From NCBI RefSeq assembly GCF_044324875.1, contig NZ_CP172185.1: a DNA stretch of 64,000 bases; one strand, 5' to 3'. Positions 5,414-30,505 of the stretch are shown here, piece after piece (position 1 is the first letter of the stretch; the number at the start of each line of letters is the position of its first letter). The notes under the pieces are model-generated. The model made no database searches. It was not told the origin of the DNA and saw only the letters and a list, made by a program, of their open reading frames with translations. Made by a program: the position numbers and the translations under genes. The DNA is from Escherichia coli. Its GTDB lineage: Bacteria > Pseudomonadota > Gammaproteobacteria > Enterobacterales > Enterobacteriaceae.

Positions 5414-6316
5414 TTATTGATAAACAAAAGTCACGCCAATAATCGATTGCACATTCCCTGCAGTCACCTGCCCTCCGGTACGTGCGTAATTTGCCGTTAA
5501 TCCCAGACTTACCGCCGAAGTCCCTACTGCTCCTAACGATACCGTGTTATTCGCTGGAATAATCGTACCGTTGCGCGTCAACTGTACGCCGACGCCCTGC
5601 GCTGGTGAAAACGACGCGGTATTGGTGAAAATCGAGTTGCCCGCATCTGCGGTTGTGCCGGAGAGGTAAAACCCCAGGTTTTGGCTTTTCGCACAATAAA
5701 CGGTAAGAGGAATCGGCACCGAACCGGGATAGTCCGGCAGAGTAACGGTGACATCACGAGCAGAAACATCGCAGCCGCCAGTAGGCACCACCACATCATT
5801 ATTGGCGTAAATATTCCACACAAACTGGAAATCATCGCTGTCATAGTTGTTGGTCTGTCGCAAAATAAGCACGGCAATTAATGAGCCAGCTTTAATCGCC
5901 ACCCCGCCAGCACTGCTCACAGGCGTCAAATAAAGCGCCACCGGCCACGGCTTATCCGTTCTCGAATTATAAACAACCCGCGGCGTTTCGCTGGTGGTAG
6001 GAAATGGATAGCTACTGCCACTATATTTTACGGTCCCGGAAAAATTAGATAACACGCCGCCATAAGCCGAGCCTCGTTGCAGTGTGACATAGTCTGTAAT
6101 GGTTTCCGGGTAATCGTTATGGCAAAAGATTTGCGTCGAAAGATCTACGACCAGGTTTTGCCCCACATTCACGGCGGGCGCAAGGTTTACATAAACATTG
6201 GCGCTGCCACCGCCAATAGGGATAGCGGTACCATTGGCGGTTTTACAGGCGAATGACCAGGCATTTACCGACCAGCCCATCAGCAGTACAGCAAACAGGG
6301 TAATAACTCGTTTCAT
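5414..6316 (-). CDS. fimH: Type 1 fimbrial adhesin FimH (mannose-binding tip adhesin)
   Basis: ORF 5414-6325; start at MKRVITLFAVLLMGWSVNAWS signal peptide; recognised FimH sequence. Confidence 0.9.
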   Translation of the reverse strand: MKRVITLFAVLLMGWSVNAWSFACKTANGTAIPIGGGSANVYVNLAPAVNVGQNLVVDLSTQIFCHNDYPETITDYVTLQRGSAYGGVLSNFSGTVKYSGSSYPFPTTSETPRVVYNSRTDKPWPVALYLTPVSSAGGVAIKAGSLIAVLILRQTNNYDSDDFQFVWNIYANNDVVVPTGGCDVSARDVTVTLPDYPGSVPIPLTVYCAKSQNLGFYLSGTTADAGNSIFTNTASFSPAQGVGVQLTRNGTIIPANNTVSLGAVGTSAVSLGLTANYARTGGQVTAGNVQSIIGVTFVYQ

Positions 6317-6335
6317 TACAATCATCTCTTCGGGT

Positions 6336-6839
6336 TCAGCTGTAGGTATAGGTGATGCTAATCACTGCCTGAATGGTTCCCTGAGTGGCTCCGCCATTTA
6401 CCGTCAATGCTCTGACCTGTAACGGGAAGTGCGCTGATTGTGAGGAATCATCCACCTGAACTGTTTTGGTTGCGCCACTATTCAATGTGTTGCCACTGTC
6501 ATCCTGTAGCTCTAACTGGATGTTTTGCGCGGTCCCCTGGTTTTTATAATATCCGGTACTGTCGGCTGCCCCGCTGAAGCTGGCGGTGACCCTCGACGTT
6601 CCCACCGGACAATTAGTCAACTCAAGCGCAACATCATGCCAGGCCGATGCCGCCCCGGCAGACATCAGACTGAAAGAATAAAGATCGCCGAGATCTACCG
6701 TGGCATTGGTGGTGGAAACCGTGCACGGTTTGGCGACGACCTTACCGTTCACCGTGATGGTGACATCGGCTGCCTGTATCGTCGCACTTGCGAGCGCCAA
6801 CATTGCCGCCAATAAATACCCACGTTTGCGCCATTTCAT
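6336..6839 (-). CDS. fimG: Type 1 fimbrial minor subunit FimG
   Basis: Start at MKWRKRGYLL; 167 aa; fim operon synteny. Confidence 0.9.
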   Translation of the reverse strand: MKWRKRGYLLAAMLALASATIQAADVTITVNGKVVAKPCTVSTTNATVDLGDLYSFSLMSAGAASAWHDVALELTNCPVGTSRVTASFSGAADSTGYYKNQGTAQNIQLELQDDSGNTLNSGATKTVQVDDSSQSAHFPLQVRALTVNGGATQGTIQAVISITYTYS

Positions 6840-6851
6840 GAGCATCTCCAG

Positions 6852-7382
6852 TTACTGATATTCAAGAGTGAAGGTAGCCGTGGCATTGATATGCCCCGCA
6901 GTGACAGGCACCTGTGTCGCCATTAACCGGGCGTAAAAATTCAGCGTATTTGGTTTACCCGGCGTCAGGGTCGTCCACGAAATCGCGGACGATGGGGCAT
7001 TAAGGGGTATCTGATTTTGTTGCTCATTCAGAAGCTGTATTCCCAGTCCCGCAGCCGCTGACACCGTATTTTCAAGTGCAAGCAGGTTGGCATTGTGGCT
7101 ATCTGCAACACCGGTAAACCCAACTTTTACGGCAGAAACGGCATTACCACAGGGTGACAGCAAAATACGAAATGGAACGACAGGAGTCGTCGCGCCAATG
7201 TTGTTAAATTGCTTCGCCGCGTTTTCCATCAGATCAACAGTAAAATTGGTTGATTCAGCGGCCACACTACAGCCGTTATCTCTGACATAGCCGCGGATAG
7301 TAATCGTGCTATCCGCAGCCAAAGCGTGACTTACCGCCAGCCACAAAAAAGCGCACAGAAGATAAAAAGGTTTGTTTCTCAT
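6852..7382 (-). CDS. fimF: Type 1 fimbrial minor subunit FimF
   Basis: [22 protein letters not shown] signal peptide; pilin-like; second Met chosen as start. Confidence 0.85.
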
Positions 7383-7391
7383 CACGCCCCC

Positions 7392-10028
7392 TTAACGACA
7401 TTCAGCTGATAGCTGGGTTAATAACTGCTGCTGACTCTCTGGTGGCAGTTGATAATTGGCGACACAGTGAGCATTTTCCTCTTCTCCCCATTTCACCTGA
7501 ACTTTTCCCGCTAAAGGCATTCCGCTGAGGTAAACCTGACCATTATCCGCAACAATGCCGCTACTCTGGCTACTCTCTGATGTCACCATCGCCCCAAACG
7601 GCAGCGGCTTATTATTGTGGGTTAGCGTCATGAGCAGTTTTATCCCAACGCGCGCTTTAAACTCTGCTCGCACGATCGCCCCACGGGTGGGAACAACGTT
7701 AGCGACCGCGTTATCTAAATCGACGTTATCAGCCAGGGTATTGGTATCCAGCGCTACTCTGTTTTCCCGATACTCAGTGGCATAAGGCAGCACGGCATAA
7801 CCACGCCAGTCGGTACGCACCCCCGTCTGGTTTTCGACTTTTGCATCTTTTGCGCCAGGCGCTTTAACAAGCACCACCGTATCGTTTAACGGCTGCCCCA
7901 GCGTTACGCCATTGGCATGAGCCAGTACCCCACCGCTGACTCCGTAATAGAGCTGCTTAATATCATCGCTATGGCTGTAACCGATATTGGCATTGCCGTA
8001 ACCACCGCGATAATTCAGCGTGGCGTAGCCTGTACTTCCGCTATTACCATCGCCTCCCCCGGCATAGCCGGTTTGCACGCTATAGCTGAGGTTGTTGTCT
8101 TCCAGCAACGTACCGTATACGCCAGCCAGATTGGTCATCCGACCGTTGAGATCGTGTGACATGCTGTAGCTGGCACTGGCATGTCGCCACTGAGATTTAC
8201 TGTCAGAACGCAGCCAGTGGCTGAAAGGAATATTGACGTTAAGCGCTAACATCTGATCCCGTCCTTTTTGCCAGGCGTTTTTCGTCAGGCTATAGCTGAG
8301 CGTCCAGTTGATATCTTCGAATGCAGTATTTAAACCAGCCTGGAATTGCTCATCGACATTACTCGTTCCCCAATAAGTTTGATGGCTACCACTCAAATAC
8401 AGTGTTGATGTGCGCCCGAGTTGCTGAGTAACGGTGAGTTGTAATTTCCCGCGTTTGTTATAAGCGAGATTGTAATAGTCGGTGAATTTCGGCTTAACCT
8501 GAATAACACCATCCTGTGTTTCGATGTTGTAGCCATTCATTCGACTGTATGTTGTATCAGCGAAATTAAAATACCCACTGGTCGAATAACGGTAACCCAC
8601 TAACTGAATATTCGTGCCTGATTCATTGAGCGATTTGTTATAGAGAAAACGCACCGATTGTCCGTCATGCTGACTGTCATCGGGAAGTGTGGAATTAGCC
8701 TGCGTCATATCCACAGACAGAGCGCCCAGTGCCCCCATGTTTTTCCCGATACCGAAATTAAAAGCACGATAACGATCCGCCAGTTGCGTTCCACCATATA
8801 TTGTCCAGCCAGCCGGAAGGCCGTGGAGTAATGTACTCTGGAAAAAGCGGGGTTTTTCCTGCTGCGCATTTCCACTGCGGTATTCTCCTGCCGTAATGGA
8901 ATAACGAGTATGCCCTTCACGTTGCAAAAGCGGGACTGACGAATAGGGTACGGTAAAGATCTGCGTGCTGCCGTCAGCCTCTTTAATCGTTACCTGCAAG
9001 TCACCACTATTACCTGCGGCATAGATATCGTTGATGGTAAAAGGCCCCGGCGGCACCGTACTATTATAAATGTCATACCCATTTTGTTTAATAGTGACCT
9101 GTGCAGTACCACGAGCAATACCGTGGATCACCGGGGCAAATCCTCTTTGGCTATCGGGTAACATATTGTCATCTGAGGCCAATTGTGCGCCGCGAAAGTT
9201 AATACCATCGAAAATATCGCCCTGGGTATAACCATCACCCAGCGTCAGCCGGGAACGTAACGGAATTATGTCTCGCTCAAGCCAGGTATTGATATGCTGC
9301 CATTTATTTTTGCTACCTGATGAACTGTCGCTACTGTTATAACTCCAGGTGGTATTGTCGCGTAAACGCCACGCACCAATATTTAGCCCACTCTGTAGGT
9401 TTAAATAAGCATAATGGCTGTTACTACCAATCCGATTCTGTACACTATTTCCGCTGAAATTATAATTGAGCAATCCGGCATTAATACCGGGATCCCACAA
9501 CTCAGGAGGAATATATCCACGCGCGCGATTACTCATAAATGCCTGAGGGATCGTCAGGTTGAGTCGCTGCTGACCAACATCCAGATGCGCAGTAGCGTCA
9601 TGGATCATTGAGGTTAATGGCACGCAGGCATCATCCGCCAGCAAATTCATACCGGAGACAGAAGCCGTATTCAGCCCCATACCGGCAAGTTGCGCGCGTG
9701 TCAGGCAGGGAACAATCCCTTGTTCACTATCGCCCGTATTAAATGTGACATCACGCGTTGCCATATAACCATTATTCAAATAGATATCGACACGATACGT
9801 CCCTGGCGGTAATTCTTGCCCATTCTCAAAACGCGATAAATCAGCCACAGCCTGGGGATCATCCGCTAAAAAAAGCGGGTTAAAATAGAGTTCGGCAGAT
9901 GACAAAGGTGCCTGTGCGGCAAAAGCACAAGCAATAAAGAACCGGACAAAAAAACCAGCCAAACGATGCTTACGAATATGCAAGCATTGTGTGTTTCGCT
10001 GGTAAAGTCTTAAATTCAGATATGACAT
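7392..10028 (-). CDS. fimD: Type 1 fimbrial outer-membrane usher FimD
   Basis: 878-aa ORF recognised as chaperone-usher pathway usher. Confidence 0.9.
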   Translation of the reverse strand: MSYLNLRLYQRNTQCLHIRKHRLAGFFVRFFIACAFAAQAPLSSAELYFNPLFLADDPQAVADLSRFENGQELPPGTYRVDIYLNNGYMATRDVTFNTGDSEQGIVPCLTRAQLAGMGLNTASVSGMNLLADDACVPLTSMIHDATAHLDVGQQRLNLTIPQAFMSNRARGYIPPELWDPGINAGLLNYNFSGNSVQNRIGSNSHYAYLNLQSGLNIGAWRLRDNTTWSYNSSDSSSGSKNKWQHINTWLERDIIPLRSRLTLGDGYTQGDIFDGINFRGAQLASDDNMLPDSQRGFAPVIHGIARGTAQVTIKQNGYDIYNSTVPPGPFTINDIYAAGNSGDLQVTIKEADGSTQIFTVPYSSVPLLQREGHTRYSITAGEYRSGNAQQEKPRFFQSTLLHGLPAGWTIYGGTQLADRYRAFNFGIGKNMGALGALSVDMTQANSTLPDDSQHDGQSVRFLYNKSLNESGTNIQLVGYRYSTSGYFNFADTTYSRMNGYNIETQDGVIQVKPKFTDYYNLAYNKRGKLQLTVTQQLGRTSTLYLSGSHQTYWGTSNVDEQFQAGLNTAFEDINWTLSYSLTKNAWQKGRDQMLALNVNIPFSHWLRSDSKSQWRHASASYSMSHDLNGRMTNLAGVYGTLLEDNNLSYSVQTGYAGGGDGNSGSTGYATLNYRGGYGNANIGYSHSDDIKQLYYGVSGGVLAHANGVTLGQPLNDTVVLVKAPGAKDAKVENQTGVRTDWRGYAVLPYATEYRENRVALDTNTLADNVDLDNAVANVVPTRGAIVRAEFKARVGIKLLMTLTHNNKPLPFGAMVTSESSQSSGIVADNGQVYLSGMPLAGKVQVKWGEEENAHCVANYQLPPESQQQLLTQLSAECR

Positions 10029-10094
10029 TATTCCTCCGGTTTAAAATCACCCGGCAGTCAATTCTTTCTATTCAGGCGAAAAATTCCCCCTGCG

Positions 10095-10820
10095 TTATTC
10101 CATTACGCCCGTCATTTTGGGGGTAAGTGCGCCATAATCATTTATTGTTCGGTAAGTAATATTGCTTCCTGCATCAGAAGGCAATTTAACCGTGCTTTCG
10201 CCCATTGGAGGCACCAATGCATTTTCAAGAACCCGGGTTCCGGCATTCAACTCTGTTACCGTCAGGTAATAGGGTGTCGGGTTAATCAGCGTCAGAGAAT
10301 TCGCGCTACGACGAAATCTTAATTTTTCTGCGGCCTGATCGGGTGGCAACGCTAATTTAGCCGGGCGATAGTACAGTTTAATGCGGCTGATAATTGCGAG
10401 CTGTAGCGTATTCTCAGTCAATTTTGATTTATCCATTGACGGAATCGCTTTAACGTTCATCCAGAATAAACTTTCCCGATCCTGTGGCAATTGGTTATTT
10501 GTTGCATCAAGAATACGCAAGGTATTCTCTTTTTTTCCCTTCATCGCAAACAGAGGAGGCGTCACGATAAAACGACCATCCTTTACACCATCGGCATTTT
10601 CCACCCATGATTGAATTAAATAGGTGCTATTTTCATCATTATTTGTCACGGCAAGTTGCACTTGTTTTTGCCCTGCCGGATAAATTACGCGAGTCGCACC
10701 TAAGGCCACTCCCGCTTCAGCGCGTCCGGCAACCATCATTGCCATGAACATCAGGATACCTGCCAGCAAGCAGAATGTTATTTCCTGCGATTTCCTTACA
10801 TTGACGTTTTTATTACTCAC
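10095..10820 (-). CDS. fimC: Type 1 fimbrial periplasmic chaperone FimC
   Basis: 241-aa ORF, PapD-like chaperone, recognised as FimC. Confidence 0.9.
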   Translation of the reverse strand: MSNKNVNVRKSQEITFCLLAGILMFMAMMVAGRAEAGVALGATRVIYPAGQKQVQLAVTNNDENSTYLIQSWVENADGVKDGRFIVTPPLFAMKGKKENTLRILDATNNQLPQDRESLFWMNVKAIPSMDKSKLTENTLQLAIISRIKLYYRPAKLALPPDQAAEKLRFRRSANSLTLINPTPYYLTVTELNAGTRVLENALVPPMGESTVKLPSDAGSNITYRTINDYGALTPKMTGVME

Positions 10821-10856
10821 TGTCCTGTTCCTGTTATCACATTATCTGCTGAACAA

Positions 10857-11396
10857 TTACTGATAGGTTAAAGAGAACCAGGCCTGGGCATTGGCGATGC
10901 CGCCAGTAACCCGACGCCCGGTAGCACGATATTTGGCGATGAAATGTAGCGAAGTAGAGCCTGAGTAAAGCCGTTTCCAGTTTGCTGGAGGACGATTAAT
11001 CGGTACGAGGTTTCCTTCATCATCAAATAACGCTACGCCAATATTTGTGGCTATCCCTGGCCCCTCTCCCACGGAAAGCACATCCGGATTTTTACCATCC
11101 GCGACACCGTGAAACGCCACACCCACACGTTCACTCACCACCGTGCTACATTCCCGTAAATGAATAACAAAAGGCACCGGTGCGCTATCTTCCCCTACCG
11201 CATGAAACCGGTTACTGCTGATTTGCCCCATATTGACCGTCATTTGTTTATCACCAGCTTCAACTCGGCAAGTTTCCGCAATAATGACGCCCTGAAATTG
11301 CATATTTCCGCCGGGCAGCGTGGTATTCCATTTATTTCCGGCCAGAGCAAACATTGGCAGCAACGACGCTAATAGAAATAATCTCTTCCTTTTCAT
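10857..11396 (-). CDS. fimI: Fimbrin-like protein FimI
   Basis: ORF 10857-11528; start chosen at [19 protein letters not shown] (179 aa); longer upstream extension possible. Confidence 0.8.
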
Positions 11397-11460
11397 CGTT
11401 ATTTTTATCGCACAAGGGTGGGCATCCCTGCCCGTAATGACGTCCCTGAACCTGGGTAGG

Positions 11461-12009
11461 TTATTGATACTGAACCTTGAAGGTCGCATCCGCATTAGCT
11501 GCGCCAGGGGTTGCGGCACCGGTTGCAAAATAACGCGCCTGGAACGGAATGGTGTTGGTTCCGTTATTCAGGGTTGTTTGTGCACTAAATGTCGCACCGT
11601 CCAGCGCCAGCGCAGCACCCGTTCTGTCCAGGATCTGCACACCAACTTTTGTTGCGCTACCCGCAGCTGAACTCTGCAAAGCTAATACGTTAGGATGAGT
11701 TCCATCAATTGCGGTACCAAGGAAGGCAATAGCAGCTTTATCTGCAACAGTAGTGTCACAATCGTTCAGTTGAATGTTAAAACCGACAGCAGAACTGGTT
11801 GCTCCTTCTTGTGCCAGCGATGCGGTACGAACCTGCCCTAACTGAACGGTTTGATCAGCAGAGCCTGCATCAACTGCGCAAGCGGCGTTAACAACTTCCC
11901 CTTTAAAGTGAACGGTCCCACCATTTACCGTCGTAGTATCAGCCAGAGCCGCTGCGGAACTGAGGGACAGAGCCGACAGAACAACGATTGCCAGAGTTTT
12001 AATTTTCAT
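11461..12009 (-). CDS. fimA: Type 1 fimbrial major subunit FimA
   Basis: Start at [23 protein letters not shown]; 182 aa; recognised as FimA. Confidence 0.9.
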
Positions 12010-12128
12010 GCTGCTTTCCTTTAAAAAAACTATTTCTAAATCGACATGGGCAGTCGTTCTGTACACTTTGTTTTGTCAACGAGTTTGACTGCCAACACTG
12101 CACAGTTTTCCCCCAAAAGATGAAACAT

Positions 12129-12442
12129 TTGGGGCCATTTTGACTCATAGAGGAAAGCATCGCGCACAAACTTTTTCAGTTTATTTGTTGGCTTAATATT
12201 CTATTGTTATCTTTATTTATAGATTTTTATATTGCATGAGGTGGTTTTTGGAGAGAAGAATGAGGAAGATGCGTCGAGCCACAGAAACGTTAGCTTTACA
12301 TTTGGCGGAGGTGATGTGAAATTAATTTACAAGAGAAATAATTTACATATCAAACAGTTAGATGCTTTTTATCGTTTTTTAATATTTTTATGCTTGAGAA
12401 AAAATACGTAACTTATTTATGATATGGACAGTTTGGCCCCAA
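12129..12442. promoter_or_regulatory. fimS: fimS invertible element (fim switch), 314 bp, bounded by 9-bp inverted repeats TTGGGGCCA; appears to be in phase-OFF orientation
   Basis: ttggggcca at 12129-12137 and its inverted copy tggccccaa at 12434-12442; the internal sigma70 promoter reads on the + strand, away from fimA. Confidence 0.8.
12394..12423 (+). promoter_or_regulatory. fimA sigma70 promoter inside fimS (-35 TTGAGA, 18-bp spacer, -10 TATGAT), pointing toward fimE
   Basis: ttgaga at 12394-12399 and tatgat at 12418-12423 on the + strand; fimA is on the - strand at lower coordinates. Confidence 0.7.
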
Positions 12443-12489
12443 TTGTCTTGTATTTATTTGTTTTTTAACTTTATTATCAATAAGTTAAA

Positions 12490-13086
12490 TCAAACCTCTT
12501 CTCTTTTTAATTTTTCGTTTATGAGATTATTTCTTTCCCATAATCCGGCAAAACGAGCAGCATTACTGGCGGTATAACGTACAGTATGGCGAATATTTCG
12601 ATGCCCGAGATAATCCTGAATTAAACGGGTATCGGCACCACGCTCCGCCAGTTCATAACCGCAAGCATGCCTTAACATATGAGGATGAGTCTGCGTTACG
12701 GTTCCAGCTTCAATACCTGCATCGCGAATAATGCGATAGGCCTGCTGGCGAGAAAGCCGACTCCCGCGGCGAGAAATAAATATAGCGTCGGTCCGGTCAG
12801 CGCCTTTCCAGTTAGCACGTTCCTGGGTCCAGCGTTCCACGGCTTCACGCTCATCAAAACGTAACGGGTGAACGGTAGAAAATCCGTTCTTCAGTCGGCG
12901 AATATTTATTCGACCTTCATTAAGGTCAAGATCCTGATAATGCAGATCAAGCAGTTCACTAATACGCATCCCATGCCGATATGCCAACAGAATAAGACAA
13001 TAATCTCTGGCTCCCGTTGCCCCGTAACAAACCGCCTGCATCATGGCCTGAACTTCTTTACCGGTAAGATAACGACGTTTACTCAC
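12490..13086 (-). CDS. fimE: Tyrosine recombinase FimE (fim switch ON-to-OFF recombinase)
   Basis: 198-aa ORF with tyrosine recombinase motifs (HxLRH, RHTVRYT); position next to fimS. Confidence 0.9.
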   Translation of the reverse strand: MSKRRYLTGKEVQAMMQAVCYGATGARDYCLILLAYRHGMRISELLDLHYQDLDLNEGRINIRRLKNGFSTVHPLRFDEREAVERWTQERANWKGADRTDAIFISRRGSRLSRQQAYRIIRDAGIEAGTVTQTHPHMLRHACGYELAERGADTRLIQDYLGHRNIRHTVRYTASNAARFAGLWERNNLINEKLKREEV

Positions 13087-13563: not shown

Positions 13564-14166
13564 CTATAAAACAGCGTGACGCTGTCGTCCTCTGGCTCTA
13601 TCCCAGATGCCGTAAAAACGCCCTGCATTACTGGCGGTATACCAGACAGTATGACGAATATTGCGATGCCCAAGATAATCCTGGATAAGTCGCGTATCTA
13701 TTCCCATATTCGCCAAAGCAAAACCACACGAATGGCGTAACATGTGCGGATGAATCTCCAGTGACAACCCGGCATTACCACCAGAAGTCGAGATAATATG
13801 GTAAAACTGTTGCCGAGAAAGCGGATTCCCCTTACGTGATAAAAATACCCACTCGCTCTCAGCATGCGGGTACGAAGTACGGATACTCAACCAGTTTTTT
13901 AAAGCCTGAACTTCTTTGTTCAATAGCGGGTGCGTTGTTGAAAAGCCTTTTTTTAATCGATGGATATATATACACTTTGCCTTAAGATCAATATCCGAAA
14001 TCCTCAATCGACAAATTTCACTCGCCCGGAAACCATGAATAAAACAAAGCAAAGTCAGACAATAATTACGTGCTGCATGAGGCCCGGTATTTGCTGCTTT
14101 AAGGAGTGACTCGATTTCACTATGGGTAAGGAAGTTCCTTTTTTTGTTATCAGCCTTATTCTTCAT
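13564..14166 (-). CDS. fimB: Tyrosine recombinase FimB (bidirectional fim switch recombinase)
   Basis: 200-aa ORF, paralogue of FimE with the same recombinase motifs. Confidence 0.9.
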   Translation of the reverse strand: MKNKADNKKRNFLTHSEIESLLKAANTGPHAARNYCLTLLCFIHGFRASEICRLRISDIDLKAKCIYIHRLKKGFSTTHPLLNKEVQALKNWLSIRTSYPHAESEWVFLSRKGNPLSRQQFYHIISTSGGNAGLSLEIHPHMLRHSCGFALANMGIDTRLIQDYLGHRNIRHTVWYTASNAGRFYGIWDRARGRQRHAVL

Positions 14167-19372: not shown

Positions 19373-21106
19373 ATGGAAATCATGTTACCAAAAAACACCT
19401 TATATGATAGAGAGCAAAATATCTTTTTTGAAAAGGTTACGGCCTTAATTGGAGAAAATGGTGCTGGTAAATCCTCGATTTTACAATCCGTATTTATTAA
19501 CTGTTTAACAAAAAAATATCTACCAGAAACAAAGGTTGTTTGTTTTTCTTCTGGACAAAATGAGAAATACTCAACGTACTTCTCTGATTATCTTTCTCAT
19601 GAAAGGCAAGCAAATAGAGGTCTTAGCTTAGATTGTTGTTATTACGATAAATCATGGTCAAAGTTACTAATATTCATATCCACAATTTGTAAATCAAATG
19701 GTCTTGTTAGAAATTTTTTATGTGAGAAAGGCTATATTGATGTATCAGATGATAAAAATGATGATATATCAAGCAAGCTTACATTGACGGTCCGAGTAAA
19801 TTCGGCTTACGTTAATCGAGTAAAAATGGCATTAGCACAAGAAGAACAAGGTATTGAAAATACTTTAAGGTATTCAGCTTATCATAGGACTTTAGAAAGT
19901 TTCATTAATAATATTGTTAATGCTGATTATGATTTCGAGTCTCCACTTGAAGCTCAAGAGATCTTGCTAACTCATTCAAATTTTTTCAATCCATCATTTG
20001 AGGAAGGAGAAGATTCCTTTTTTGATCCTATCATAACATTTTTCACTCAAGCAGCAGATAATGATTACTTTATAATAAAACCATCATTACAGCTAGAGTT
20101 TAAAAATAATATCGAACTGAATGATATTAGTGATGGGGAATATCAAGTACTCTTTTTATACTCTTTGCTTGATATTTTTGATAGTCCTAATACTTTATTC
20201 TTATTAGATGAGATAGATTCCCATTTACATTACAAGAATATTGAGCTCTTATGGCATCGACTACATAGTATTAATGGTTATGCGATAACAACCACCCATC
20301 TATTAGACTCAATTACAGCTACTGATAATGATTTTAAAAACTTAAAGATTGTTGATAAAGGAAAAATAAAAGAAGATGATAAAATAAAAACTATAATAGA
20401 ACGTTTATCTGTCTTGACAAGAATATCAGACGTACAGTTCGAAGTGTGTCGTAAACTAGAAAACATTGTATTGATGGATGATTATAATGATTGGACTATT
20501 TTTTATGCCTTAGCAAAGAAAAAAGGACTTGATGTATCAAAGTTAGATGGCCTCCATGCAATAAAACAGTCCTCTGGTTACGATAATTTAAATCAAGAGT
20601 TCGCAAAACCAAAAATAGAGTGGATTAATTCGCTTTTAAATGTAAATACTGATAAAAAAGTCAAAAAAATATTCATGATCTGCGACAAAGATGAGGCTCC
20701 AATTACCTATCAGAAAGATGGAGTTCAAGTCAATGGAAGTGAATGTTCAAAACATATAGCGAAGTTAGAAAATAAAAACAAAAATAAAATATATCTCCTT
20801 GTCTGGAAAAGAAGAGAAATAAAAAACTACTTATTATCTTATACGGCATTGTCTCATCATGGATTTATCGGGCAAATAAACAATGGTGATCTGCCGGCTA
20901 ACAGTTATTTAAAAGAAAACGATCCTGGAGATAATTCAGCAATTAGCCGGCTTAACGTAAAACATTGCATCACAAAAATAATTGATTCTGATGGTATAGG
21001 ATTAGATATATCAAAACTTTACTCATATATAGAACTTATACCACCTGCTGAGATCAGTGAAGATATAGTGAATATGTACAATTTTTTGGTGGAGAAATTA
21101 AAATGA
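19373..21106 (+). CDS. OLD-family-like ABC ATPase with C-terminal Toprim-like region (putative nuclease/ATPase component)
   Basis: Walker A GENGAGKSS, ABC-signature-like ISDGEYQ, Walker B LFLLDEIDSHLH, H-loop TTTH; C-terminal DxD-type motif FMICDKDE; about 28% GC. Confidence 0.75.
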   Translation: MEIMLPKNTLYDREQNIFFEKVTALIGENGAGKSSILQSVFINCLTKKYLPETKVVCFSSGQNEKYSTYFSDYLSHERQANRGLSLDCCYYDKSWSKLLIFISTICKSNGLVRNFLCEKGYIDVSDDKNDDISSKLTLTVRVNSAYVNRVKMALAQEEQGIENTLRYSAYHRTLESFINNIVNADYDFESPLEAQEILLTHSNFFNPSFEEGEDSFFDPIITFFTQAADNDYFIIKPSLQLEFKNNIELNDISDGEYQVLFLYSLLDIFDSPNTLFLLDEIDSHLHYKNIELLWHRLHSINGYAITTTHLLDSITATDNDFKNLKIVDKGKIKEDDKIKTIIERLSVLTRISDVQFEVCRKLENIVLMDDYNDWTIFYALAKKKGLDVSKLDGLHAIKQSSGYDNLNQEFAKPKIEWINSLLNVNTDKKVKKIFMICDKDEAPITYQKDGVQVNGSECSKHIAKLENKNKNKIYLLVWKRREIKNYLLSYTALSHHGFIGQINNGDLPANSYLKENDPGDNSAISRLNVKHCITKIIDSDGIGLDISKLYSYIELIPPAEISEDIVNMYNFLVEKLK

Positions 21107-23004
21107 ACACCTCTTTATTTGAAGATCTACTTACACTAATCAAGAAAAAGAGTTCGATAAGAAATACAGAACAAGCAGTAGAGCTAATTTCATTATTTAT
21201 TTTTTTACATTATATAAAATTATATTTTTATGAAAATGATAAAAGATTCTCAGATATAAAAAACATATCAAGCAACAACATTAATGAAATTAAATATTAT
21301 TACCAGCAACTATATGAAAGCTTTATTTTATCGATAGATATAAAAAATATAAACCACGACATGCTTGAAAATCTCAGGAGCAAGATAGGTTTTTTAATTA
21401 ATAACATCAATAACCATGAAATAATCAAATATATAGATTATTCTCTTTCGCATATACATTCACTTACAGAGTTCTATCAATATGCAAATTCTTATCAATC
21501 TTTAATTCTTAGGATGGTTAATGAATCGGGTCGTTCAGGGGAATATGTTACTCCATCTGCTTTAGTTCAGCTCATGGTTGAAATGTTATCACCTACAGAT
21601 GGCACATCAATCTACGACCCAGCATGTGGAACTGGGGGTTTATTAATAGAGTCAGCACGATATATTAAAGGCAACAGTTTAAACAAAAACTTTAATTATT
21701 CCCTTATTGGTAATGACACATCATCATTTGCCTGTCTAATCTCAATTGTTAACCTTTTAATCAATAAAGAATTTAACTTTGAAATAATACTAAAAGATAG
21801 CTTAGATATAAATTATAAGAATAAAAAATATGACTTTGTTTTAACTAACCCACCATTTGGGAAAAAGAGCGGTTGGGATAATATTCATATTGACACACAT
21901 TATAAAGGACCTAATCTAGACTATTACTTCCTGGAGCATGTTATTGACTCTCTCGCTGTTAATGGCAAAGCAGCCATAATATTACCAGAGCGTTTTTTAT
22001 ATGATGTGAGTAAAGAGTGCATCACTCTTAAAGATAAGATCTTCCAAAATTATAATTTAGATTGTATTTTATCTATACCGTCAGGTGCATTGCTTCCTTA
22101 CACTGCAGTAAAATTATGTATTCTTTTTATAAGTAATTCTGGCCCAACAGATAGAATATTTTTCTACAATTTAAATAATGGTAAAAAATACTCACGTACA
22201 AATACTATAAAATTCGATGATTTTATAGATTTTTTAGAGTCAGCAAAAAATAGAACAATAACTGAACACTCCTGGATTATCAATATTAGTGATACACCTT
22301 CATCTTATAACTTACTCTTAAAAGATAAAGAGCGAAACTCATATGAGTTTCTTAGTGATTCTATAGTTAACATTGAACAGACAATACGTAATAATGAATT
22401 GTTACTAACCGAGTTGTCTTTATTAAGAGAAAAAATAGAGATCTTAGAGTCAACAATAAAAAATCATTCGCATGAATATGAATTTGAGAGACTTAAAGTT
22501 GGAAATATTGCATTAGTAAAATCCGGAAATTTATTACAAAAAAATAGACTATTATCCACTGGGCCAATTCCTGTATATGGTGGGAATGGAGTTATTGGAT
22601 ATAATTATGAGGCAATGGAAAATGGTGAAAATATTATTATTGGTAAGGTCGGAGCTCTTTGCGGAAACGTTCGGTATGTTCAAGGTGATATTTGGGTGAC
22701 AAATAACTCATTAATTATTAAGAATTATTTACCAAATAAAGTTTTAACACCCTACCTTGCAAAGTTATTATCTACTTTAAACTTAAGAAAGCTCGCCGTT
22801 GGTACCGCTCAACAATATTTAACCACAACACAAATAAAAAATGTAGAAATTAACATTCCACCTTTAACGACCCAGCATAAATTAAATATGTGGCTTGATG
22901 AGTTAGATAATACCCTTGAACAATATAATAAGCTCATTGAAAAAATAATGAATGATAAGCGAGAACTTAAAGAGAATTTGTATAAAGGTCTTTTAATAGA
23001 ATAG
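21103..23004 (+). CDS. N6-adenine DNA methyltransferase fused to a single HsdS-like target-recognition domain (M-S fusion)
   Basis: Motif I IYDPACGTGGLL, motif IV NPPFG, C-terminal TRD-like region; start ATG overlaps upstream stop (ATGA at 21103-21106); GGAG ribosome-binding site at 21091-21094. Confidence 0.8.
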   Translation: MNTSLFEDLLTLIKKKSSIRNTEQAVELISLFIFLHYIKLYFYENDKRFSDIKNISSNNINEIKYYYQQLYESFILSIDIKNINHDMLENLRSKIGFLINNINNHEIIKYIDYSLSHIHSLTEFYQYANSYQSLILRMVNESGRSGEYVTPSALVQLMVEMLSPTDGTSIYDPACGTGGLLIESARYIKGNSLNKNFNYSLIGNDTSSFACLISIVNLLINKEFNFEIILKDSLDINYKNKKYDFVLTNPPFGKKSGWDNIHIDTHYKGPNLDYYFLEHVIDSLAVNGKAAIILPERFLYDVSKECITLKDKIFQNYNLDCILSIPSGALLPYTAVKLCILFISNSGPTDRIFFYNLNNGKKYSRTNTIKFDDFIDFLESAKNRTITEHSWIINISDTPSSYNLLLKDKERNSYEFLSDSIVNIEQTIRNNELLLTELSLLREKIEILESTIKNHSHEYEFERLKVGNIALVKSGNLLQKNRLLSTGPIPVYGGNGVIGYNYEAMENGENIIIGKVGALCGNVRYVQGDIWVTNNSLIIKNYLPNKVLTPYLAKLLSTLNLRKLAVGTAQQYLTTTQIKNVEINIPPLTTQHKLNMWLDELDNTLEQYNKLIEKIMNDKRELKENLYKGLLIE

Positions 23005-23012
23005 ATCACAAT

Positions 23013-23040
23013 AGCAGGGTGTCCATAAAACACCCTGCTA
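23013..23040. terminator. Hairpin between the convergent methyltransferase and hsdR genes (likely bidirectional terminator)
   Basis: agcagggtg / caccctgct inverted repeat with a 9-nt loop. Confidence 0.5.
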
Positions 23041-23084
23041 CTGGTTGCAAGTAAGTTGCAATATCTGTACTGCTGAAGCTACTA

Positions 23085-26000
23085 TTAATAATGCTCCTCA
23101 ATATACCCATACGCCTTCTGGAACAACTCTTTATCTTTCCCTAGTCCAAACTGGGCCAAGGTCAGTAAAAGCGCCTTTTGGATTTCGCGCGGGCCACTGT
23201 TGGAATTTTGCCAGCCATCAAAGCGGGTAGCTTTCACAATTTTATCAATTTGCTCTACAACATCACCGATTAACTTAGGGGTAGTTTCCGGACGTGTTTC
23301 GAGGAAAAGCTTAGTCAACGCCTGTTTATTATCAGCTTCAGTTACTGGGCGCTCGCCCGTTTCGCGCTCGGCTTGAACGGTATCTTTCGCTGCATCCAAC
23401 AGGCCTTTCAACCAGTCAATGGCCTTGATAACACCAGCTTCATAGTCCTGACGCAGTTTTTCAAGGCGCTCGCCCAATGCCACAAATTTAGGATCATGAC
23501 TGCCGCGCAAACGTCCCATAAGATCAATCTCCAGGCGTTTGGCACGTTGTTCCTGCTCTTTAGCGGTCAGGGTAAAAATAGCGTGCTCGTCCATAACCAA
23601 CTCGTCAATATCATCGCGAATACGATTGATATCAGTATGCTCATGGATCATCTTGATTGTTTCGGGGCCAAGGGCAGCCCAAACAAGCGCACCTGTCTGC
23701 CCTACCGGACGCACCGATTCATAAATTTGCGCCAGCCATTTATAGTCCTGACGATAAGAGGTCAAAAAAGGATCTGGGTTGATAGCTGACCATAACTTGG
23801 ATAACACACCAAAGCTGGCAGCGAATTCATCGCGTTTCTCGTTGGTCGGCAGGCATTCCTGCGCGGCCATAATACCTTCAAAACCAGCTATGGACCGATC
23901 CACACCAGGGAAGAAGGACAAACATTTATTCAGTTGTAACGGCAATAGCTCTTTAAATGCCTCAATTCCCTCTACAACTCCTTCAATTTCTTCAGGGTTA
24001 TAGGCCAGAGCGGTACGCAGATTTTCGAAAACGCCGAGGTAGTCGATAATTAATCCCATGTCCTTGCGTACAGTATCGGTTTCGTACAACCGGTTGGTTC
24101 GGCACATGGCCTGAAGAAGAGTATGATCGCGTAGAGGCTTATCGAGGTACATGCAGTAGCAAATCGGGGCATCAAAGCCCGTAAGCAGCTTGGCGGTTAC
24201 GATAATAAGCTGTAATGGATGTTCAGGATCTTTAAAGCATTCAATCAGATCCTTTTGCACCTGTTCTTCGGCATCAATGTGCTGCCAGCGTTCAAAATCG
24301 ACTTGTTTGACTGGCAGCTCCAACTCATCATGCCATTTAAGCCAATCCTTGTTGAGCTTGTCTTTTTTGCCACCCTCTTCAACTTTAACCGGAGCCTGGT
24401 CAACGTTCATAACCACTTCAACCGCATCAAAACCAAGCTTTTCACCGAGCAAATAATACATCTGCACACAGGCTTCGCGATCGTATACCACAACCATGCC
24501 TTTCATCTTTTTCGGCATAACATGGTTGGTAAAATGCTCAGCAATATCATTACTCACCGCAGCCATACGCCTAGGGGATTTCAGCATGATTGCCAGCTTG
24601 CCTGCACGCCTGGACAATGCTGCTTTTTCTTCTTCATCCAGGTTGTTTTCGGTAGCCAGTTGCTCGAACTCTTCATTGATGGCATCACGATCCACTCGGA
24701 GTTCAGCCAGCCGAGGTTCGAACTTCACCGGGTTAGTTGCGCCATCCCGGATCGACTGCTTATAGCTATAGCGGCTCATATAGCGACCCGGATCTTCTTC
24801 GGCACCGAACAATTTGAACGTATTACGATCAATGCCAGAAATCGGAGTACCTGTCAGGCCATAGAAGTGGGCATTGGGCAACGCCCAGCGCATTTTCTCG
24901 CCTAATCCCCCTTCCTGTGTACGGTGAGCTTCGTCAACCAACACAATGATATTGTCACGGTTGTTCAGGCCATTAGGGTTGCTATCGTCAATTTCGATAT
25001 CTTTAAATTTAAAGATGGTGGTGATTAAAATGCCACGGCTGTCTTGTTCAATGTATTCACCCAGCTTTTTGCAGCTTTGCACTTTAATCAGATTCTTAAC
25101 GTCGGCTCCACCAAAGGTCTCGTTAATTTGGCTGTCCAGATCTCGCCGGTCCACAACGATAAGTACCGTCGGGTTTTTTAACGCATTATCGGCACGTAGC
25201 ATTTTGGCGGCGTAAAGCATCAACAAGGATTTACCCGATCCCTGGAAATGCCAAATAAGACCTTTTTTTGGATAGCCTCTGCGAACACGCTCAACGATTT
25301 GTTTTGCTGCTTCAAATTGCGGATAACGCGGCAAGATTTTAACGCGTTTAGGTGGAGTATTTTTGCCCGTTTTGACGGTTGAAAATAATGCGAAAGATTC
25401 CAGTAACTGCAATAAGGTTTGCGGATTTAACAAACTCTCACAGCTATTGAGTACCGATGCTAATCCCGGCAGAATCTCATCACGAAGCTCAGTATTATGC
25501 CAGGGTCCCCAGTCTTTAACTCGGGCATTAATGGCACCATAGGCAAAGGTTTTTCCTTCGCTGGCAAAGCACAGCAAGTTAGGTACAAAGAAAGATTCAA
25601 CATTTTTCCAGTAGTACTTTTTGCCACCCATGAAATCGGCAGCACCGTCTTGCCAGGTCACGCTGGGGCGTGTTGCGGTTTTAACTTCGCCCACTACTAG
25701 CGGTATGCCGTTCACATAAAGAACAATATCAAAATAGACTTCAGTGGCCGCGATATAGCGAACCTGCTGCGCCACCACAAAGTGGTTGTTCTCTATATTG
25801 TCAAAATCAATCAGATTGATGGTGATATGGTCGCCATTCTTACCAAAAGGCAAGGTTTTGTCGGCCATCAACCATTCCTGGAAGTTTTCATTGGCCTTTA
25901 CCAAGCCGGTATGGCGGGCTTCTAAAACCACTCCTCGCAGTTTGTAAATGACCTCATCGGCATAGTCAGGCTGTCTGCCGATATCAGGGTTTAACGAACA

Positions 26001-26147
26001 AAGCGCGTCTTTTAGCCACTCATCAACGAAGATATCCTGCGCTTGTTTAGGCAGGTTTTCACCGTGGCAGTAAGTCCACTTGACTCCGCTTAAACCTTTT
26101 AAACGGTCGATAATTCCATTTTCTGTGACGGTTTGTTCGTTAAACAT
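23085..26147 (-). CDS. hsdR: Type I restriction enzyme R subunit (HsdR)
   Basis: 1020 aa; PD-(D/E)xK-like DIVLYVNGIPLVVGEVK, Walker A QGSGKS, DEAH box VDEAHRTQ, GLTGTP. Confidence 0.9.
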   Translation of the reverse strand: MFNEQTVTENGIIDRLKGLSGVKWTYCHGENLPKQAQDIFVDEWLKDALCSLNPDIGRQPDYADEVIYKLRGVVLEARHTGLVKANENFQEWLMADKTLPFGKNGDHITINLIDFDNIENNHFVVAQQVRYIAATEVYFDIVLYVNGIPLVVGEVKTATRPSVTWQDGAADFMGGKKYYWKNVESFFVPNLLCFASEGKTFAYGAINARVKDWGPWHNTELRDEILPGLASVLNSCESLLNPQTLLQLLESFALFSTVKTGKNTPPKRVKILPRYPQFEAAKQIVERVRRGYPKKGLIWHFQGSGKSLLMLYAAKMLRADNALKNPTVLIVVDRRDLDSQINETFGGADVKNLIKVQSCKKLGEYIEQDSRGILITTIFKFKDIEIDDSNPNGLNNRDNIIVLVDEAHRTQEGGLGEKMRWALPNAHFYGLTGTPISGIDRNTFKLFGAEEDPGRYMSRYSYKQSIRDGATNPVKFEPRLAELRVDRDAINEEFEQLATENNLDEEEKAALSRRAGKLAIMLKSPRRMAAVSNDIAEHFTNHVMPKKMKGMVVVYDREACVQMYYLLGEKLGFDAVEVVMNVDQAPVKVEEGGKKDKLNKDWLKWHDELELPVKQVDFERWQHIDAEEQVQKDLIECFKDPEHPLQLIIVTAKLLTGFDAPICYCMYLDKPLRDHTLLQAMCRTNRLYETDTVRKDMGLIIDYLGVFENLRTALAYNPEEIEGVVEGIEAFKELLPLQLNKCLSFFPGVDRSIAGFEGIMAAQECLPTNEKRDEFAASFGVLSKLWSAINPDPFLTSYRQDYKWLAQIYESVRPVGQTGALVWAALGPETIKMIHEHTDINRIRDDIDELVMDEHAIFTLTAKEQEQRAKRLEIDLMGRLRGSHDPKFVALGERLEKLRQDYEAGVIKAIDWLKGLLDAAKDTVQAERETGERPVTEADNKQALTKLFLETRPETTPKLIGDVVEQIDKIVKATRFDGWQNSNSGPREIQKALLLTLAQFGLGKDKELFQKAYGYIEEHY

Positions 26148-26151
26148 ATAG

Positions 26152-27306
26152 TCAAACTCCTAGAAGCTCATATATTAATGCTTGTCTAAGATTAAAATAA
26201 TGTTCTTTTTTATCTCTCAGCACCTTCAATATTTTCTCGAGCGATTCCAATTTTTTTACTAAAATATCTGAGTCAGTAAATAATTTATTATGAATGAAGA
26301 TATCATCAAAAACTCTTACTGTTACTCTTTGCCTACCTGAAGTGCCTTCCATGTGATGAAGAGCATAATGCCTAAATTTCTTTGTTTTGATTATGTAATA
26401 ACCAAGTTTCTTTAGAAAATGATCTTCAAATTTTGATCTCATCACTATAAACTCAGTGGATCCCACAGCTATACTCTCTTCTGCAAGAAAATCAACAAAT
26501 GCTGCCTTACCATTTTCAAAACAAGGTGTGATTCTAGCCAAAAGGATATCATCTTTTCTAAATTTCATACCAGAAGATTTTCCTGACTTAGTTTCTCCTT
26601 TATAGTCTATATATGGAAGTTCAACATCTAAAGATGCCATATCAACATATGGTATTATTTCATCCACTGACCCAATCTTTGGATTAATTAAAAAAGAATC
26701 ACTTAATGAACTCCAGTCATTCTTTTTCCCAGCTGATGTTGTCGCCAGATAAATACCTACTTCAGCATCTATAACATCCTGATATAACTTTCTTACCGAT
26801 AATATAGTTTCATTAAGATGCATATAGCATTCATGGAATTTGTCAAGAATAACTAAGGCACTATTTTGTTTTTCTCTATCGAGAATATTAAATTTAAAGC
26901 TTACAACATCCTTCCATCTAATATGCTTATTAGTTGAACCAATAGTATTTTTTAACGTATGCTCAGCAAAACTTTCAGATTGAAAGATATATGGAAGCAA
27001 TCGACTTTCAAAACCATGATATTGCTTTGGCGTACATACAATAACCTTCTCACCACAATATCCTTCTCTATCAGCTATCGCGACTTTTCTTAACTGCGGA
27101 TTTCTAGTTAGATAAAGTATGTCTCCTGGGCTAAATTTCTTCCCAAAAGTTGGCCCCATATCATCAGGGGCGATTCCGTAGCGAGAGAAAAATATTTCAC
27201 AATTATCAAAGTCTTCTCCTCTTACACAATATTTAACATTAGGATCTAAATTATTCTTCTCCCATATGTTTTTTTCTTTTACTAAGTCAGAAAGAGTAAT
27301 CTTCAT
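26152..27306 (-). CDS. hsdS: Type I restriction-modification specificity subunit (HsdS), two TRDs
   Basis: 384 aa with two TRD-like halves and conserved HsdS segments; overlaps hsdM stop by 4 bp; very AT-rich. Confidence 0.85.
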   Translation of the reverse strand: MKITLSDLVKEKNIWEKNNLDPNVKYCVRGEDFDNCEIFFSRYGIAPDDMGPTFGKKFSPGDILYLTRNPQLRKVAIADREGYCGEKVIVCTPKQYHGFESRLLPYIFQSESFAEHTLKNTIGSTNKHIRWKDVVSFKFNILDREKQNSALVILDKFHECYMHLNETILSVRKLYQDVIDAEVGIYLATTSAGKKNDWSSLSDSFLINPKIGSVDEIIPYVDMASLDVELPYIDYKGETKSGKSSGMKFRKDDILLARITPCFENGKAAFVDFLAEESIAVGSTEFIVMRSKFEDHFLKKLGYYIIKTKKFRHYALHHMEGTSGRQRVTVRVFDDIFIHNKLFTDSDILVKKLESLEKILKVLRDKKEHYFNLRQALIYELLGV

Positions 27307-28766
27307 ATCTTTCCTCCATTAAAAAAGTAAGAAGAGTTCATATTCAATTCTTTTCTAAACGATTGCCATTTACTTATCTCCCTTGAGAGATTTAAATCTT
27401 TAAATTCTTTTTCTATATACACAGGAACATTTAGATTAAAATCGTTATCTTCGACTTCCTCGATAGAGGCTATATACGTAGTAATATTAGAGACATCCTT
27501 CAAACTAATGTAAGAGTTATAGATATTCATTATATTAATATCATTTAAATAAGCATGATTCCTAGTGGTAATAAGTTCATCATAGGCATTTATAAATAAT
27601 ATTTTCCCTTTTAGCTCAGTTCGTTTATTGCAATTCAACAAAATAATACATGCCGGCATAGGTGAATTATAAAACAATCCAGGGCCAAGACTAATTACAC
27701 ATTCAATAATATCTGTTTGAATAATTTTTTCTCTGAGCTGTTTCTCACTTTCTCTGAAGAGAACTCCATTTGGCCAGAGCATAGCTGCGCGACCAGTATC
27801 AGGCTTCAGGCTTTTAATTATATGGGTATAAAACGCATAATCAGCACAGCCCTGCGGTGGTACACCATAAAGATTACGACCATACGGATCAGCGGCAAAC
27901 TTGTCACGATTCCATTTCTTAATGGAGTACGGTGGGTTAGCAAAAATCACATCAAACTGCTTGAGCCGATCGTTTTCAATAAACTTTGGTTCAGCCAGAG
28001 TATCACCGCGCAGCACATCAAATTCTTCAATATCGTGCAGGAACATATTCATACGAGCAATAGCGGAAGTCAGCAGGTTCACTTCCTGGCCATAAAGGTG
28101 CACAGAGCGCCACTCTTCTCCTCTTGCACGAAGATCCATCACTGCATTTAGCAACATCCCTCCAGTGCCACACGTTGGATCATAGGCTGTTTCACCCGGT
28201 TTTAAGCCCATAATGCGCGTCATTAAATGCACGACTGTTCGGTTGGTGTAGAACTCTGCTGCCGTATGACCGGAATCATCAGCGAACTTTTTAATCAGGT
28301 ATTCGTAGGCTTCACCAAGATCATCCTGGGCGACAGATTTAATGCCGAGCGGAATTTTACTGAAATGTTCAATCAGATCAGCCAGCAGATGATCGGGAAG
28401 GCGCTCTTTATTGGTCCACTGTGCATCACCGAAGACGCCATGTAAACGCGGGTTATTGGCTTCAATTAGTCGAAGCGCATTCTGGATCGCTTCACCAATG
28501 TTTTTACTGGTATTGCGTACCTTTTCCCAACTGGCTTCAGAGGGAATATTGAAACGGTGAAACATCGGCATGGCGGCATATTCAGCATCACCTTCATGGA
28601 GTTCCAGCGCTTCGTTATATTCTTCCAGATAGACATCTGACAGGCGTTTGTAAAACAGCAACGGGAAGATATACTGCTTGTAGTCTGATGCGTCAATTTG
28701 GCCACGAAGAAATTCGGCGGCTCCCCAGAGCAGCTCTTCCAGCTTTTTATTACTCATAGTACTCAT
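27303..28766 (-). CDS. hsdM: Type I N6-adenine methyltransferase subunit, paralogue 2 (HsdM)
   Basis: 487 aa; motif I YDPTCGTGGML, motif IV NPPY; start overlaps upstream hsdM stop (ATGA at 28763-28766); 3' third of the gene is markedly AT-rich. Confidence 0.9.
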   Translation of the reverse strand: MSTMSNKKLEELLWGAAEFLRGQIDASDYKQYIFPLLFYKRLSDVYLEEYNEALELHEGDAEYAAMPMFHRFNIPSEASWEKVRNTSKNIGEAIQNALRLIEANNPRLHGVFGDAQWTNKERLPDHLLADLIEHFSKIPLGIKSVAQDDLGEAYEYLIKKFADDSGHTAAEFYTNRTVVHLMTRIMGLKPGETAYDPTCGTGGMLLNAVMDLRARGEEWRSVHLYGQEVNLLTSAIARMNMFLHDIEEFDVLRGDTLAEPKFIENDRLKQFDVIFANPPYSIKKWNRDKFAADPYGRNLYGVPPQGCADYAFYTHIIKSLKPDTGRAAMLWPNGVLFRESEKQLREKIIQTDIIECVISLGPGLFYNSPMPACIILLNCNKRTELKGKILFINAYDELITTRNHAYLNDINIMNIYNSYISLKDVSNITTYIASIEEVEDNDFNLNVPVYIEKEFKDLNLSREISKWQSFRKELNMNSSYFFNGGKI

Positions 28767-30262
28767 ACCTCGAACCCTTCTTTGATAAGCAGGGCCTCCA
28801 GCTCCTCTTCTGCTTTTTCCAGCTCAGCCAGCTTCCGTTGAAAATCTTTGAGCGCTTCTTCCACAGTAATGGTTTCTTCTTCGAGTGGCTTTTGCACATA
28901 ACGAGCAATATTTAGATTGAAGTCATTTTCTTCAATCTCCTTCAGAGGAACCCAGCGTGCAACGCCTTCGATTTCTTTTGCATCTGGCCCTTGTTGCGCC
29001 TGGTCATGATAGATTTGGTATATTTCATCGGCCTGCTTGTTGGACAGCGTATTCTGCGCACGCCCCTTGGTATAGATTTCTTCAGCATTGATGATCAATA
29101 CATGATCTTTATGCGCTGCCGGACGTGATTTACGCAACACCAAAATACACGCAGGAATCCCAGTCCCATAGAACAGGTTGGAAGCAACACCAATAATCGC
29201 CACAATGCGATTCTCTTGCAGTAATTTGGTTCGAATTGCCCCCTCTGCGCCGCCACGAAACAGCACACCATGAGGTAATACGACAGCCATACGTCCATTG
29301 TCGTTAAGTGAAGCAAACATATGCTGCACCCAGGCAAAATCACCATTTGTTTTAGGCGCCAGGCCATATCGCTTACGGCCATAGGGATCGTTCGACCACA
29401 GATCGTATCCCCATTCTTTCAAGCTAAACGGTGGGTTGGCAACAACGCAGTCAAAGGTTTCTAAACGATCGCTTTTTAAAAATTTAGGTTCGCGTAACGT
29501 ATCCCCTCGGACAATATCGAAATCTTCCTGTCCATGCAGGAACAGATTCATACGCGCAATAGCTTCCGTCGTTAAGTTCTTTTCCTGACCCTTGATTTTT
29601 AGTAAACGCGGATCACCACCATTTTCTTTTACATGGTGGATGGTCTCAAGCAGCATACCACCGGTACCACAGGCGGGATCGTAGACACTCTCACCGGCTT
29701 TTGGATCAAGAATGTTAACCATCAAACGAACGATAGTTCGTGGGGTATAGAACTCACCGGCTTTCTTATTGGCTTTGTCTGCAAAGCGTTTGATCAGATA
29801 CTCGTATGCGCGCCCCATATCATCGTCACGGACACTAGAAACGCCAAGGTTCACCTTATTGAAGTGATTGAGTAACGTAGCCAGTAACTCATCAGAAAGG
29901 CGTTCTTTATTGGTCCAGCTGGCATCGCCAAAAATGCCATGCAGTTTAGGGTTTGCCAGTTCTATACCACGGAAGGACTCTTTTAAAGCCTGACCGATGT
30001 CCTTGGTCTCAGCGAAAACATCGCGCCAGTGGCAATTTTCAGGTATCTGAATACGGTGAAACATCTTGCCCTTGGCAAGCTCTGCATCCCCAATGCTCTC
30101 CATCGCATCGGCAAATTCTTCGTCATACACGTCACAAATGCGCTTGAAGAACAGGATGGGGAAAATGTACGTTTTGTAATCTGACGCATCAATGGGCCCT
30201 GTAATAATATGGGCTGCATGCCATAGATGGGCCTCGAGATCTTTTAGGTTAATCAGTGTCAT
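28763..30262 (-). CDS. hsdM: Type I N6-adenine methyltransferase subunit, paralogue 1 (HsdM)
   Basis: Start chosen at MTLINLKDLEAHLW (ATG 30260-30262); GEFYTPRTIV, YDPACGTGGML, NPPF motifs; 499 aa. Confidence 0.9.
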   Translation of the reverse strand: MTLINLKDLEAHLWHAAHIITGPIDASDYKTYIFPILFFKRICDVYDEEFADAMESIGDAELAKGKMFHRIQIPENCHWRDVFAETKDIGQALKESFRGIELANPKLHGIFGDASWTNKERLSDELLATLLNHFNKVNLGVSSVRDDDMGRAYEYLIKRFADKANKKAGEFYTPRTIVRLMVNILDPKAGESVYDPACGTGGMLLETIHHVKENGGDPRLLKIKGQEKNLTTEAIARMNLFLHGQEDFDIVRGDTLREPKFLKSDRLETFDCVVANPPFSLKEWGYDLWSNDPYGRKRYGLAPKTNGDFAWVQHMFASLNDNGRMAVVLPHGVLFRGGAEGAIRTKLLQENRIVAIIGVASNLFYGTGIPACILVLRKSRPAAHKDHVLIINAEEIYTKGRAQNTLSNKQADEIYQIYHDQAQQGPDAKEIEGVARWVPLKEIEENDFNLNIARYVQKPLEEETITVEEALKDFQRKLAELEKAEEELEALLIKEGFEV

Positions 30263-30505
30263 TGTTGTCTCTTTTCGATCCTGCAGTGCTTGAACTCTCA
30301 GCAACTCATGGATTTCACAGTAAAAAAGCAAGTAAAGCGATTCCACAACCACCTGAGCGTTCAATATGTATGACGCCTTTACCCAAGTTGCTTAAATCAA
30401 GGAAATTGCCTGAGATAATACTCTGGCATCAGAATGATACCAAGTTGAAGGGCTGATTTCCGCATCAATACCTTGTGGTAATAGGGGATTACTCTTTTAC
30501 CCTTA

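Follow-up and report, generated by a model that had tools for sequence, protein, structure and literature searches.

The analysed window is a 64-kb stretch of Escherichia coli DNA which runs from uxuB through the fim and nan genes and an approximately 18-kb island of defence genes, ending near leuX, on to mgtA. On its minus strand the fim genes are arranged in the order fimB, fimE, the invertible element fimS, fimA and then fimI, fimC, fimD, fimF, fimG and fimH, down to position 5414 (Table 1). DNA identical to that of the window is annotated as fimA in RefSeq, the annotations of fimE and fimB are in agreement as well, and the genes from fimI to fimH are colinear with those annotated for the fim operon in strain GN06156. 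The open reading frame of fimA, with its ATG start, lies exactly where an earlier note on this DNA had placed it on the minus strand.

At the protein level FimA differs from its K-12 counterpart at 14 amino acid positions, while FimB and FimE are invariant. Compared with the closest genome, divergence is also highest in the kilobase containing fimA: the 11–12 kb bin has 63 mismatches, versus 6–27 elsewhere. Such antigenic hypervariability is usual for the major subunit. The MG1655 annotation additionally includes a small RNA, fimR2, located 11–45 nt past the fimA stop codon, and the equivalent position in the window would be approximately 11416–11450 on the minus strand.

Table 1 Features of the fim locus and its surroundings in the 64-kb window.
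Feature	Position	Strand	Remarks
fimI-fimC-fimD-fimF-fimG-fimH, served by PfimA in the ON orientation	5414..11396	-	uninterrupted ORFs of the expected sizes
fimA, major type 1 fimbrial subunit, cut off from its promoter here	11461..12009	-	182 aa + stop, ATG start
fimS, invertible element, OFF orientation	12129..12442	.	perfect repeats; MG1655 308/314 the same way; Z142-7 314/314 the opposite way
IRR, fimA-proximal 9-bp repeat	12129..12137	+	TTGGGGCCA; named per literature usage
BstUI site (CGCG), the sole one in the OL4/OL20 amplicon	12161..12164	.	sets the assay fragments
C-rich, G-poor stretch, probably the rut-like portion of the Rho-dependent fimE terminator	12239..12278	-	17 C, 2 G per 40 nt
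IHF consensus match, IHF-2 by position, inside fimS	12348..12360	+	WATCAANNNNTTR; motif only
PfimA promoter hexamers (-35 TTGAGA, -10 TATGAT)	12394..12423	+	consensus scan 10/12; same place in MG1655
IRL, fimE-proximal 9-bp repeat	12434..12442	+	TGGCCCCAA; named per literature usage
IHF consensus match, IHF-1 by position, just outside IRL	12475..12487	+	WATCAANNNNTTR; motif only
fimE, tyrosine recombinase biased ON-to-OFF	12490..13086	-	198 aa, identical to K-12 FimE
fimB, tyrosine recombinase, both directions	13564..14166	-	200 aa, identical to K-12 FimB
AAA ATPase and N6 DNA methylase	19373-23004		defence island
Type I restriction-modification system, R, S and two M genes	23085-30364		defence island
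TIR-domain protein	30506-31156		defence island
IS110-family (DEDD) transposase ORF, 326 aa	32340-33320	-	in the 1278-bp insertion
SF1 helicase with PLD nuclease domain, 1171 aa	33894-37409		defence island
Ysr276, antisense in the 503-aa ORF 44902-46413 (pepA by annotation)	45460-45654	-	Rfam, above gathering score
naRNA4, REP-type nucleoid-associated RNA	46490-46565	-	Rfam, above gathering score
Magnesium riboswitch, upstream of mgtA (ORF 60385-63081)	63175-63290	-	Rfam, above gathering score

The element between fimE and fimA measures exactly 314 bp from repeat to repeat and is bounded by two perfect 9-bp arms, TTGGGGCCA and its reverse complement TGGCCCCAA, as in the literature definition of fimS, a 314-bp element flanked by 9-bp inverted repeats of this sequence. 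The earlier note had described a 314-bp element with 9-bp inverted repeats here, and every coordinate it gave was right. Each of the two 9-mers occurs only once in the window, and the repeat finder places them at the centre of an imperfect inverted repeat of 22 nt. Taken alone, an inverted repeat of 9 bp is weak evidence for a real element; fimS is considered real here because of homology, namely a 308/314 match to the fimS of MG1655 and the presence of the region in 4724 of the 5426 complete E. coli genomes searched.

A second inverted repeat of 16 nt (88% complementary, arms at 12409–12424 and 12472–12487) sits astride IRL in the sequenced orientation, its inner arm overlapping the -10 hexamer and its outer arm the IHF-1 consensus match. 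Inversion of the element would break its pairing across IRL, and in DNA as AT-rich as this the repeat may have arisen by chance.

In MG1655, fimS (NC_000913.3, 4542682–4542995) agrees with the element in the window in its 9-bp repeats, its length of 314 bp, its location between fimE and fimA and its orientation. The two differ by six substitutions, at 12165, 12225, 12302, 12304, 12333 and 12371, all of which spare the promoter hexamers, both IHF matches and the 9-bp arms; outside the element, the spacer between fimE and IRL is 1 nt shorter in the window, and there are two substitutions in the spacer between IRR and fimA. The fimS of strain Z142-7 (NZ_CP159686.1), in turn, is identical to that of the window over 314/314 positions after reverse complementing, with the flanks and recombinase genes as in the window. 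It is a natural ON copy, for which the BstUI assay described below gives 434 + 293 bp, in contrast to the OFF copy in the window. The comparison with reference switches proposed in the earlier note is in line with its reading of the orientation: MG1655 lies the same way and the ON copy the opposite way.

The same note had reported TTGAGA, an 18-bp spacer and TATGAT on the plus strand, reading toward fimE, and the hexamers were found at precisely these positions (12394–12399 and 12418–12423), matching 10 of 12 consensus positions. The pair stops 10 nt short of IRL and lies on the strand opposite to fimA. A generic promoter scan of this AT-rich region yielded 3 sites in 801 bp versus 2.7 expected from shuffled sequence, so the meaning of the site is taken from homology and not from the motif alone: in MG1655 the identical hexamers with the identical spacing are found at the fimE-proximal end on the strand opposite to fimA, and in the ON copy of Z142-7 they are on the fimA strand, adjoining fimA. 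Partly on account of their position, we take these hexamers to be the fimA promoter, PfimA; the mapping of this promoter and of its transcription start was reportedly done by Olsen and Klemm in 1994. The literature describes fimS as containing PfimA and the OFF state as the one in which PfimA is directed away from fimA, and a predicted sigma-70 promoter for fimA is present inside the element near one of its repeats.

The orientation can be determined independently of the promoter call with the assay of the Dorman laboratory, in which the switch is amplified with primers OL4 and OL20 and the product is cut at its single BstUI site. The published patterns, calibrated with fimA-lacZ ON and OFF colonies, are 539 + 187 bp for OFF and 433 + 293 bp for ON. 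Both primers match the window exactly, with the in silico amplicon spanning 11975–12701, and the digest yields the OFF pattern, with 188 + 539 bp; when 12129–12442 is reverse-complemented in silico, fragments of 434 + 293 bp are obtained, as in the ON pattern. The orientation-specific PCR suggested earlier was thus carried out in silico and returned the OFF fragments.

A third line of evidence comes from the strand that would be transcribed together with fimE. As sequenced, the central part of the switch has on this strand a 40-nt stretch (12278..12239) with 17 C and 2 G; in the flipped switch the best C-rich stretch on the fimE-sense strand contains only 10 C and 7 G. Hinde et al. (2005) reportedly found the fimE terminator to be a C-rich, G-poor region in the middle of the switch which has the features of a rut site and acts in the OFF orientation. 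The stretch found here fits a Rho-dependent fimE terminator which would be engaged in OFF, and the literature places such a terminator within fimS, where it is connected to fimE or disconnected from it by inversion. No terminator-like hairpins were detected in a scan of 11900–12700, which is consistent with a Rho-dependent and not an intrinsic fimE terminator, and no RNA family was found in an Rfam search of the fim region. The OFF orientation of fimS as sequenced is supported by the agreement of the promoter position, the BstUI assay and the fimE-sense strand, and the statement in the earlier note that the fimA promoter points away from fimA, leaving the molecule fimbriae-OFF, is supported by all three.

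An 801-bp segment around the switch was used as a query against 5426 complete E. coli genomes, a genome being assigned to an orientation if it had a colinear alignment over at least 80% of the query length. In all of the 4724 genomes bearing the region it is located between annotated fimE and fimA, with fimE annotated as type 1 fimbria switch DNA invertase. The window orientation (OFF) was found in 4458 of the 4724 genomes, or about 94%, and the flipped version (ON) in 248, or about 5%; together these make 4706, and the two counts do not overlap because on a single strand a genome of the opposite orientation can cover no more than 61% of the query. Both orientations therefore occur in nature, as is evident from these counts and from the identical inverted allele of Z142-7, and OFF is the default state in assemblies, the MG1655 reference included. 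The proportion of about 94% matches the known dominance of FimE-driven switching from ON to OFF.

Taken together, the element is with a probability of about 95% the canonical E. coli fimS, a promoter segment inverted by FimB and FimE, which was sequenced in the OFF orientation, appears free to switch and is a snapshot of the majority state. As described in the literature, the two recombinases would invert the 314-bp segment by recombining within the two 9-bp repeats. In the sequenced orientation the promoter end of the segment adjoins fimE and the promoter would fire toward fimE, which would leave fimAICDFGH without a promoter, and transcripts of fimE would enter the terminator region, rich in C and poor in G, within the switch. 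The cells dominating the sequenced culture would accordingly be non-fimbriate, i.e. in phase OFF. None of the sequence features found contradicts this explanation. The fimS switch itself is already known, a textbook promoter inversion by tyrosine recombinases encountered here in its default state.

It could be argued that the assembly took its orientation arbitrarily from roughly balanced ON and OFF reads with no clear OFF majority, given that phase-variable populations are mixed, that assemblers output one path and that, with repeats of 9 bp, reads spanning the element are needed for phasing. Against this, the literature states that OFF predominates in ordinary culture owing to the bias of FimE, and OFF in 94% of complete genomes is predicted by a strong OFF majority and not by a coin-flip, so we regard balanced reads as an unlikely source of the observed orientation. 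A mis-assembly is also unlikely with repeats of this length. A consensus assembly represents one orientation, and the ON fraction of the culture is outside its reach.

It is less likely still, and in our view very improbable, that a lesion in the element or the recombinases has genetically fixed the switch in OFF, as opposed to a phase-variable snapshot. Strains locked in OFF do exist, and the window displays one orientation only. The switch of E. coli O157:H7 is locked OFF by a 16-bp deletion in fimS, and in some lineages there is an insertion in fimB; EPEC E2348/69 is described in the literature as locked OFF. The window shares the OFF orientation with such switches and differs from them in having no such lesions: fimS has its full 314 bp and perfect repeats, FimB and FimE have the same sequences as the functional proteins of K-12, and fimB, fimE and fimS are uninterrupted by IS elements, with both recombinase ORFs intact. 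A locked-OFF variant was accordingly rejected, as neither a deletion in fimS nor a disruption of fimB or fimE is present. In addition, the identical 314-bp allele is inverted in Z142-7.

The literature also places one IHF site, IHF-1, next to IRL and another, IHF-2, within fimS, and the consensus matches at 12475–12487 and 12348–12360 occupy these two positions, where IHF would be expected to bind. Because the element is of full length with perfect repeats, FimB and FimE are the same as in K-12, and Z142-7 carries this allele inverted, the switch appears to be competent to invert and not locked, and OFF is therefore best seen as a snapshot of the majority state and not as a fixed property of the strain. 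This assessment covers the cis element and the recombinases, the genes for IHF, Lrp, Fis and H-NS being located outside the window.

The remaining suggestion, that the orientation was mis-assigned and the element is truly ON, with the real fimA promoter at another minus-strand site reading toward fimA, could draw on a weak promoter-like site inside the switch (12353..12324, TTGATA-18-TAAATT, 9/12) and on TTGACA at 12074–12079 of the fimA strand, a -35 hexamer without mismatch located between IRR and fimA, but it is effectively refuted already by the BstUI pattern, which says OFF without any promoter call, by a number of promoter-like sites equal to the chance expectation, by the lack of an acceptable -10 partner for TTGACA at a spacing of 16–18 nt and its absence from the scan hits, and by the occurrence of this common allele in three other strains in OFF and ON copies alike. 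A second promoter facing fimA was rejected as a candidate, the sole minus-strand scan hit being at chance level and TTGACA having no -10 partner. The earlier note had named a minus-strand promoter by the fimA-proximal repeat as evidence that would overturn its reading, and no convincing fimA-strand promoter adjoining this repeat was found by the promoter scan and sequence comparison.

The TTGACA hexamer results from a T-to-G difference, K-12 having TTTACA at this place, and was present in all three non-K-12 genomes inspected (E300010, GN06156 and Z142-7). It is only barely conceivable that it provides weak, switch-independent basal transcription of fimA in this and many other non-K-12 strains; if it did, OFF would not be fully off.

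Other systems of phase variation offer a partial parallel. In the serine-invertase switches, such as hin/hix of Salmonella and gin/gix of phage Mu, a promoter- or gene-bearing segment flips between inverted repeats, resulting in phase variation. The Hin-type recombinase is a serine recombinase encoded inside the segment and assisted by a Fis-bound enhancer, whereas both enzymes of the fim switch are tyrosine recombinases whose genes lie outside the invertible DNA, and the switch is dependent on IHF and Lrp. The likeness is therefore in the inversion of a segment leading to phase variation, and the recombinase class and the location of its gene differ.

For the use of the annotation this means that fimA as written has no promoter in cis and that all components of switching and of the fimbrial operon look intact, so that the strain should be capable of producing type 1 fimbriae. 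What an assembly shows of the orientation tells only the majority state of the sequenced culture and little about the strain. The distribution of about 94% OFF and 5% ON over 4724 complete genomes is a by-product of the comparison, a small yet concrete number.

The recombinase genes also differ in codon usage: TTG accounts for 6 of the 22 leucine codons in fimB and for 1 of 19 in fimE. The window contains a tRNA-Leu(CAA) gene at 39361–39445 on the minus strand, which is leuX by position. Translation of fimB has been reported to depend on leuX, and the share of TTG codons in fimB fits this dependence.

The closest complete E. coli genomes in the collection are 98.5% identical to the window over positions 1–25000 and 98.9% over 37001–62000. 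Seven unrelated-looking genomes nevertheless share the 801 bp around fimS at 100% identity. The source lineage seems to have no representative in the collection, and the region seems to be a mosaic.

The island of defence genes occupies approximately 19373–37409, between nanS and the tRNA gene at the leuX position, next to which no integrase was seen. The 22–31 kb region is nearly identical to GN06156, with 0–2 mismatches per kb, versus a divergence of about 1–2% in the core genes at 0–22 kb, which suggests that the island was shared horizontally in recent times.

Within the island there is a 1278-bp insertion (32235–33512) missing from the closest genome, GN06156, and splitting a gene for an Mrr-type (Mrr_cat) restriction endonuclease, the remnant of which is found at 31496–32173. 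Near-identical copies (99.8%) of the inserted element are annotated as "IS110-like element IS621 family transposase", with matches in 2244 genomes and a median of 5 places per genome. IS621 encodes a bridge-RNA-guided recombinase, and the non-coding stretch of about 190 nt at 33321–33512 (minus strand), upstream of the transposase ORF, would presumably encode the IS621 bridge RNA.
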